From the IMG/VR virus record IMGVR_UViG_2529292920_000022: a DNA stretch of 20,795 bases; one strand, 5' to 3'. This DNA comes from a virus. Lineage: Duplodnaviria; Heunggongvirae; Uroviricota; Caudoviricetes. Position 1 is the stretch's first letter. Each line of letters opens with the position of its first letter. Positions 19,593 through 20,030 of this stretch are shown one piece after another. Below the pieces are notes generated by a model, which was not told the DNA's origin, made no database searches, and saw only the letters and a list, made by a program, of their open reading frames with translations. A program made the translations under genes and the position numbers.

Positions 19593-19928
19593 TCATCCGT
19601 CGTTGACAGCTATCACACGCCCATTATCAAATCCCTGTTGGATGGTATCGGCAATGATCTTCATAACTGCCGTTTCGTTATATGGTTTTGGTGGGATGTT
19701 CGGCTTTCCGGCAATAAGCGACGCAGCGGCTTTTTCCATGCGCTCCACCAGCCCAAGCATTCGTGAATCAATAGACTTTTCCGGCTGCCCCAGCTTCATG
19801 CGAATCGCATCAACAAGCCAAGAGGTTTTATCTCCTCCAGAAGCGAGAACAGACCGATTAAACTCATCCTGCAATTCAGATGGGATGCGGAACGCGATCA
19901 GATTAGATTTGCTCATTGCAAAGACCAT
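19593..19928 (-). CDS. Ribbon-helix-helix (Mnt/Arc-like) repressor-like protein; C-terminus abuts the IS right end
   Basis: The N-terminal segment SNLIAFRIPSELQDEFNRSVLASGGDKTSWLVDAIRMKL matches the RHH strand-helix-helix pattern (compare Mnt FNFRMPMEVREKL...NGRSMNSELLQIV). The stop codon lies at the IS junction. Confidence 0.5.
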   Translation of the reverse strand: MVFAMSKSNLIAFRIPSELQDEFNRSVLASGGDKTSWLVDAIRMKLGQPEKSIDSRMLGLVERMEKAAASLIAGKPNIPPKPYNETAVMKIIADTIQQGFDNGRVIAVNDG

Positions 19929-19959
19929 ATCAGTGAGTAATATCCATACAGTATACCAC

Positions 19960-19977
19960 TGTATAACACTGTTATAC
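19960..19977. promoter_or_regulatory. Candidate operator palindrome upstream of the RHH gene
   Basis: GTATAACA-C-TGTTATAC, a perfect 8-bp inverted repeat around one central base, about 35 bp upstream of the RHH gene start. A neighbouring CAGTATA / CTGTATA motif is related. Confidence 0.3.
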
Positions 19978-20030
19978 GCTCAAATATCAGCCAGAAAATA
20001 ACAGACCAATCACAAATCTATCGCTGTGTT

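Follow-up and report, generated by a model that had tools for sequence, protein, structure and literature searches.

The stretch of viral DNA analyzed here (IMG/VR record IMGVR_UViG_2529292920_000022, Caudoviricetes; 20,795 nucleotides, referred to as the window) contains a minus-strand open reading frame (ORF) at 19593-19928 that encodes 111 amino acids (aa), and which an earlier note had described as an Mnt-like ribbon-helix-helix (RHH) repressor. The ORF is real; however, it is not a complete gene but a fragment that keeps only the 5' two-thirds of a gene for a 147-aa regulator. The earlier note had taken it as one gene and had missed the insertion of an IS100kyp element that splits it, so that its last four codons and its stop codon are foreign. 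The intact counterpart, found in E. coli ISHS7 (locus L001), encodes a protein of 147 aa (WP_001409589.1) labelled 'hypothetical protein', to which residues 1-103 of the window product are 99% identical. The ATG at 19916 is the start chosen by RefSeq in relatives, and a further upstream ATG at 19928 is an alternative start that adds the residues MVFA. Codons 1-103 occupy 19609-19916 on the minus strand and cover the RHH domain (approximately residues 1-45), a central helix (approximately residues 50-70), and the first helix of the C-terminal domain. The tail of the ORF, at 19593-19608 on the same strand, lies inside the right terminal repeat of the insertion sequence (IS) and consists of the last base of codon 103, the VNDG codons, and the stop. 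The displaced 3' part of the gene, codons 104-147 with the stop, is located at 17566-17700, also on the minus strand, and holds most of a recombinase-like helix-turn-helix (HTH) domain. The window allele yields at most a 107-aa (or 111-aa) stub made of the RHH domain, the central helix, and four foreign residues; because IS100kyp cuts the gene after residue 103 and removes the C-terminal domain, its full function has most likely been lost.

The borders of the insertion were set by aligning the window to the uninterrupted locus of E. coli ISHS7, where the point of divergence gives the exact junction. The IS100kyp element, a member of the IS21 family, spans 17707-19608 on the plus strand (1,902 bp, with TG...CA ends) and carries istA at 17793-18815 and istB at 18880-19542, in whose products Pfam recognizes rve and IstB_IS21 (the latter at 2.9e-101). 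It is flanked by a 5-bp target-site duplication, GCTAT, at 17702-17706 and 19609-19613, which is present as a single copy in the uninterrupted locus, and positions 19543-19608 are 100% identical to the ends of IS100 in unrelated phage and plasmid records. The junction between IS and gene was found in none of the 5,426 complete E. coli genomes searched. The element itself is probably defective: it is 52 bp short of the canonical 1,954 bp, canonical copies align to it as two 100%-identical pieces and thereby reveal a 52-bp internal deletion, and its istB starts only at an internal ATG (220 aa, with the Pfam match beginning at profile position 30). Other E. coli alleles of the regulator gene (P0002, P0005, P0007, P0055, P0068, and P0093) are likewise truncated or joined to unrelated sequence, with breakpoints that differ among them, and this variety of broken alleles suggests that decay of the gene in E. 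coli is recurrent.

The family of the intact protein comprises approximately 365 database clusters, all from Enterobacterales with the exception of one metagenome-assembled genome labelled Paceibacterota (L018). Its members are 141-147 aa long and 60-99% identical, have no Pfam or NCBIfam model, and are annotated nearly everywhere as 'hypothetical protein'; an exhaustive hidden Markov model (HMM) search of 1.84 billion representatives added a few further distant full-length relatives. In the literature, we found no mention of WP_001409589 or of an RHH regulator in Gram-negative phage-inducible chromosomal islands (PICIs), and when 50,697 phage records were searched with the protein by tblastn, nothing matched at E <= 0.01. 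In other genera, the gene is located toward the distal end of primase-bearing islands; in about 20 of the genome loci the primase gene is within 8 kb. Pantoea coffeiphila (L012) has two copies, at 8001-8303 and 9252-9554, which lie 1.25 kb apart with identical upstream regions and represent either a tandem duplication or tandem islands.

The proposal of a strand-helix-helix N-terminus found support in profile comparison and in modelling of the isolated domain, and we take the RHH fold as supported at the level of prediction. In a scan of 19 family members, which included the distant full-length relatives from the HMM search, six matched Pfam RHH_1, three matched TacA1 (best 1.1e-5), three matched a NikA-like model, and CopG_antitoxin was also matched. 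When the family profile was compared by hhalign with an alignment of the Mnt family, residues 10-51 were placed onto Mnt 7-48, the RHH domain (P 7.6e-5), with the invariant FR-P motif aligned to the FRMP of Mnt; comparisons with the single sequences of Mnt (P 1.5e-4) and Arc (P 1e-3) gave the same register, and a broader family profile searched against the sequences of the PDB had a CopG-family protein on top (E 0.068). An L14 match obtained with a narrower family profile against the PDB was spurious and was discarded. An AlphaFold2 (AF2) model of residues 1-52, built with a wider alignment, has a predicted local distance difference test (pLDDT) score of 81 and an extended N-terminal segment followed by two helices, that is, a strand-helix-helix fold of approximately 45 residues. 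A profile relationship to known RHH families was also present, with evidence that is consistent but weak, the query alone falling under the Pfam thresholds. With the window ORF as query, the NCBIfam and PADLOC scans gave nothing meaningful and the PHROGs scan only a weak match to an unannotated family; Foldseek, run with the full-length AF2 monomer, gave no significant match.

Beyond the RHH domain, residues ~50-70 form an almost invariant helix (RML-LVERME-AAA-L, with the core LVERMExAAAxL), followed at residues ~77-141 by a 65-residue helical domain that AF2 predicts with pLDDT >90 and that is the most conserved stretch of the family. Its motif fits the 'LNxxGxxTxxGxxW' signature of the 'recombinase' domain of serine recombinases, relatives match PF07508 (Recombinase) at 6.4e-6 and HTH_62 (PF20552) in this region, and the family profile matches a protein composed of repeats of the recombinase-HTH type. 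A profile of the C-terminal domain alone had no match among the PDB sequences.

The operator-like palindrome that had been pointed out just upstream of the ORF was confirmed, and it proved to be part of a conserved element at the gene's own promoter. It is a perfect 8-1-8 palindrome, GTATAACA-C-TGTTATAC, at 19961-19977, 45-61 nt upstream of the ATG at 19916, and on the minus strand it is formed by the heptads GTATAAC and GTTATAC, whose starts are 10 bp apart. Taken by itself, the palindrome is weak evidence because such palindromes are common in the window, where 17 overlapping perfect palindromes with arms of at least 8 nt (approximately 10 distinct ones) occur against about 2 expected; its significance comes from conservation at a fixed position. 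We compared 49 upstream regions, consisting of the window, 44 genome loci from more than 20 genera (one of them with two copies), and the Klebsiella and Erwinia context loci. In 47 of them the arrangement GTnnnAC-N3-GTnnnAC is followed by 5 nt that usually contain TG and then by TAnnnT, and heptad 1 begins 57-63 nt ahead of the start codon, with one outlier. The TGnTAnnnT part, kept at fixed spacing in about 90% of the loci, is in the window a putative extended -10 element, TGgTATACT, at 19950-19958 on the minus strand, directed toward the gene and starting 5 nt past heptad 2. The heptads span roughly -34 to -18 of this promoter, which has no recognizable -35. Because the flanks on both sides are unconserved, the block of operator and promoter constitutes a phylogenetic footprint. 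No second copy of the operator was found in the window, even at 3 mismatches. A second inverted repeat, ATACAGT-N5-ACTGTAT at 19946-19964, overlaps heptad 2 and the -10 box and is confined to the Escherichia, Klebsiella, Pluralibacter, and Serratia subgroup. Two other candidates were dropped: a third heptad overlapping the -10 box, which occurs in the TATA-rich clade only and is not kept in the other clade, and a LexA box, as inspection of the palindrome found no CTGT-N8-ACAG.

The strand residues of the RHH domain covary with the heptads. Residues 6, 8, and 10 occupy the groove-facing positions in the Arc/Mnt register; proteins with L6/A8/R10 are paired with the inverted arrangement GTATAAC-N3-GTTATAC in 24 of 25 cases, and those with S6/T8/R10 with the direct repeat GTCTTAC-N3-GTCTTAC in 21 of 23, the other two being one base off in heptad 1. 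It is the inverted heptads of the L/A/R class that produce the palindrome, whereas the S/T/R class has direct repeats. The covariation of residues 6 and 8 with the inner heptad bases indirectly favors a predicted dimer whose two-stranded antiparallel ribbon would read the major groove at repeated subsites.

We favor, with a probability of roughly 65%, the interpretation that the intact gene encodes an autorepressing RHH regulator of an EcCIMP1-like PICI, located at the distal, non-integrase end of the island and inactivated in the window. Two RHH dimers would place their beta-ribbons in successive major grooves at the two GTnnnAC heptads, one helical turn apart; the central helix (LVERMExAAAxL) would join the two dimers, and strand residues 6, 8, and 10 would read the inner bases of each heptad. 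Occupation of the heptads, roughly from -34 to -18, would then exclude RNA polymerase from the protein's own -35-less extended -10 promoter and so produce self-repression, while the C-terminal HTH may engage another target, either a second DNA site or a partner protein.

It is important to note that several observations weigh against this interpretation. First, regarding the fold, the Pfam scan of the window ORF gave no match at E <= 1 and hence no RHH model, the hhalign probability is just 62%, and in the full-length AF2 monomer the N-terminus has a pLDDT <60 and a short helix where the strand is expected. Second, regarding the promoter, a generic scan for sigma-70 -35/-10 promoters and terminators gave no site, which leaves the promoter known from conservation alone, and the E. 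coli version has a weak Shine-Dalgarno sequence. Third, the covariation of residues and heptads splits two clades and may go back to one event in evolution, not to residues and heptads having changed together several times. Fourth, the interpretation does not account for the C-terminal domain, the most conserved part of the protein, and DNA binding, repression, and oligomeric state, and with them the biological role, are all inferred rather than experimental. Finally, where a promoter has no -35, a protein bound around -26 could in principle act as an activator and not as a repressor. In such an autoactivator, the protein would be bound in place of the missing -35 and recruit RNA polymerase to the extended -10 promoter, which agrees with a binding site that fills the space left by the -35 and with the behavior of Mnt, which stimulates Pmnt from its operator. 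However, the site comes within 5 nt of the -10 hexamer and lies directly against the TG, as is typical where RHH proteins repress sterically, and a -35 is dispensable for promoters of the extended -10 type; we consider autoactivation quite improbable.

An autoregulatory operator at the promoter is also typical of toxin-antitoxin operons, and the top structural neighbors are RHH antitoxins (TacA2, TacA1, VapB12, MazE9, and HicB), with 2bnw and 1irq also among the neighbors. The protein could accordingly be read as a type II antitoxin of the RHH kind, with ORF66 as its toxin: this ORF (17286-17486, minus strand), which encodes a 66-aa tail-anchored membrane protein matching phrog_6324 at 3e-15, is co-directional and lies 80 nt downstream of the RHH gene. 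Nevertheless, ORF66 is not beside the gene in most genera, and its place in Klebsiella and Erwinia is taken by an unrelated, convergent ORF of 62-63 aa, so no conserved co-transcribed partner is present; neither the RHH protein nor ORF66 matches a toxin family in PADLOC, NCBIfam, or Pfam, and the C-terminus is a folded, HTH-like domain and not a toxin-wrapping tail. An antitoxin is, in our view, highly unlikely. The family differs from Arc, CopG, and the RHH antitoxins (TacA, VapB, MazE9) in having no toxin partner and another C-terminus, and it is only the relatives, not the window protein, that reach weak RHH_1 and TacA1 scores.

By its gene content, the window is an EcCIMP1-like PICI. It begins with a tyrosine integrase, an AlpA/excisionase-like ORF, AntA/B, Ash, and a TOPRIM-DUF927 primase, and continues with ejection genes similar to gp14, gp7, gp20, and gp16 (11735-16393, plus strand), two membrane ORFs, the RHH gene, iterons, and PerC. 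Over 9.2 kb (positions 3823-13027), from antA/B as far as gp14 and gp7 with the primase gene in between, the window shares 97.5% identity with EcCIMP1, an E. coli PICI for which excision and transduction have been demonstrated when the P22-like phage Kapi1 acts as its helper (Pick et al. 2025, PMC11773190). The features expected of a Gram-negative PICI are present, namely an integrase, an AlpA-type regulator, a primase with iterons, PerC, and similarity to a demonstrated PICI, and no capsid or head, tail, or lysis genes were found among the window proteins. The two elements share their plan (int, an AlpA-like gene, Ash, the TOPRIM-DUF927 primase, ejection genes, distal iterons, and PerC); they differ in that EcCIMP1 has no homologue of the RHH gene and carries alpA_1 in the distal slot, in their integrases, and in their sites, which are tRNA-Thr for EcCIMP1 and a position next to dinD for the window element, as the intact E. 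coli locus abuts the chromosomal dinD.

Several other features of the island were recorded. The AlpA/excisionase-type HTH ORF (67 aa, 2436-2639, plus strand; TIGR01764 at 1.6e-4) lies about 1.2 kb downstream of the integrase and is likely the AlpA master activator of the island; between the two, a 321-aa ORF at 1356-2321 has only a weak PADLOC match, to PDC-S31. The window copy, unlike EcCIMP1, has two IS. The second, at approximately 2728-3822, with an rve-type transposase at 2719-3765 (minus strand), sits in the EcCIMP1-like backbone: in EcCIMP1, the counterparts of window positions 2629-2727 and of those from 3823 onward adjoin, overlapping by 6 bp, and a small ORF is divided into 2639-2962 and 3866-4171. 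With its two IS, the island copy looks degenerate. Downstream of perC, a 60-bp stretch (20527-20586) matches the roi/antirepressor region of lambdoid phages, Stx phages among them, at 95-98% identity and contains another perfect 8-1-8 palindrome, ATCCTCAA-A-TTGAGGAT, at 20547-20563.

The slot between the primase and the RHH gene is filled differently in other genera: a tape-measure-like protein, TMP_3 (903 aa), in Klebsiella (L051, 12511-15222) and an E217_GP41-like protein in Erwinia (L054, 11788-12888). Homologues of the ejection proteins were not found near the RHH gene in islands of other genera, apart from a weak gp20-like match in L015. Because the cargo of this slot differs where it is annotated (Klebsiella and Erwinia), the RHH gene belongs to the island backbone and the ejection genes to its variable part, and the whole suggests a PICI family carrying ejection or tape-measure proteins suited to the type of helper. 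The first of the two membrane ORFs past the ejection genes, ORF139 (16412-16831, minus strand), encodes a multi-pass membrane protein of 139 aa. EcCIMP1 has been reported to add superinfection immunity against its helper, and for this reason ORF139 and ORF66 are candidates for such a function.

The earlier note was right that iterons and a PerC gene lie on the other side of the RHH gene. The distal cluster, a neighbor and not part of the gene, consists of six exact copies of GTTGGTTCA at 20031-20151, three at 21-bp spacing and then three reversed at 9-bp spacing, and the divergent PerC-family gene follows at 20188-20475 on the plus strand (PF06069, 3e-33); PerC adjoins the RHH gene only in E. 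coli elements. Six exact copies of GTTGGTTCA are also present at 10998-11108, right after the stop codon of the primase gene, approximately 9 kb away, and the distal cluster is an inverted copy of these. By analogy with the ori/crr layout of P4, where the alpha protein is a primase-initiator, the iterons would most simply be sites for the primase-initiator. The promoter of the RHH gene is likewise flanked by GAACCAAC iterons in loci of Pantoea, Erwinia, Rosenbergiella, Mixta, and Cedecea. As targets of the RHH protein itself the iterons were disfavored, given the identical cluster after the primase gene and the many loci without iterons near the gene.

A further possibility is that the protein serves the island as a DNA-architectural or accessory factor, be it in controlling replication at the crr-like iterons, as a recombination directionality factor, or in recognizing the packaging site; its principal activity would then reside in the recombinase-like C-terminal HTH, with operator binding doing no more than adjusting the protein's own dosage. 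It agrees with a C-terminal domain that is the most conserved part and resembles the DNA-binding module of serine recombinases, with a gene that adjoins distal iterons in about 20 of 48 loci and is always near the island end, and with the excisionase-like alpA_1 that occupies the same slot in EcCIMP1. On the other hand, many loci (Providencia, Morganella, and Klebsiella) have no GAACCAAC iterons within 400 nt and their C-terminal domain is still conserved, no second conserved DNA motif was found, and the iterons are duplicated right after the primase gene, where they are more simply read, by the same analogy, as primase-initiator sites. We regard this role as unlikely; it is, moreover, compatible with autorepression and not exclusive of it.

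The earlier note had placed an Mnt-like gene in a P22 immI-like position, with iterons and perC in place of arc and ant, a view that amounts to an Mnt orthologue left behind in the immI-like region of a P22-like prophage. Part of this description stands: the ORF is oriented opposite to the ejection genes, no homologue of arc or ant lies alongside it, and the gene order is parallel, since in P22 the genes 14-7-20-16 are followed by sieA, orf59a, and mnt on the opposite strand, and in the window 14-7-20-16 are followed by ORF139, ORF66, and the RHH gene, which is likewise opposite and faces the end of the gp14-7-20-16 block. The proteins also share an in-register N-terminal RHH domain followed by a helix that could mediate higher-order assembly, and the Mnt operator is a 17-bp symmetric 8-1-8 element, the format of the site that the E. 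coli clade has at the protein's own promoter. However, ORF139 and ORF66 show no homology to sieA and orf59a, the window DNA past gene 16 has no match to phage DNA, and elsewhere the gene lies in islands, with the same operator in those of more than 20 genera, of which the two annotated ones hold other cargo; the window itself, as a PICI, lacks head, tail, and lysis genes.

Membership in the Mnt family did not hold up either. All 120 listed Mnt homologues carry PF03869 (the Arc model), and Mnt homologues, at 82-86 aa, also have PF11423 and PF22513; none of these three domains is found in the window family, which is larger (147 aa for the intact protein against 83 aa for P22 Mnt), has no precomputed Pfam domain and no Arc match, falling below the Arc Pfam model, and ends in a different C-terminus with an extra recombinase-like HTH. 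The Mnt tetramerization domain, PF11423, is absent, and the hhalign alignment ends at Mnt residue 48. Beside the RHH gene, we found no divergent arc-ant operon, no sar, and no overlapping divergent promoter; the sole operator sits on the gene's own promoter, and in half of the family the site is a direct repeat. The family is encoded by PICIs and matches none of the sequenced phages searched. Nor can the iterons and PerC be read as a module that replaced arc and ant, as the former are a second copy of the post-primase cluster and PerC is a usual PICI gene, neither of them a stand-in. The orthology to Mnt is thus largely refuted and, in our estimate, very improbable, and the likeness to the P22 gene order is convergent or coincidental.

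Among known systems, the Omega repressor of inc18 plasmids offers another comparison, being an RHH protein that recognizes a 7-bp heptad unit in direct or inverted orientation and whose structures (2bnw and 1irq) are among the structural neighbors. The heptads of Omega, however, follow one another without gaps, every 7 bp, in long arrays found at several promoters, whereas the present family has two heptads 10 bp apart at one promoter; Omega has no C-terminal HTH, and the sequence identity is approximately 12%. What is new is the combination, a putative RHH autoregulator joined to a recombinase-like HTH, restricted to one PICI family and covered by no database model; its kind is known.

As for the meaning of these results, the annotation 'Mnt-like repressor in immI remnant' should be replaced by 'IS100kyp-disrupted pseudogene of uncharacterised RHH regulator in EcCIMP1-like PICI'. 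The finding is not surprising in kind, as RHH autorepressors are common on mobile elements; nevertheless, it supplies a candidate regulator for a family of PICIs about whose control little has been learned, and it is a clear-cut example of an RHH protein with a sharply delimited operator. Its most useful lead is the pair of natural specificity classes, which differ at two strand residues, at three bases per heptad, and in the orientation of the half-sites, and which would allow a cheap and decisive test of the rules of RHH recognition. A bolder proposal, which we hold to be rather unlikely, is that the protein is a two-headed PICI regulator, with an RHH tetramer at the operator beside the crr-like iterons and a near-invariant HTH that grips either a second stretch of DNA or a protein of the helper or host, coupling island transcription to replication, excision, or packaging. 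If this were true, the change of residues and heptads would be a natural switch of the RHH recognition code, including the passage from inverted to direct geometry, and the protein would be a missing control element of the Gram-negative PICIs, in which only the AlpA activator has been known so far.

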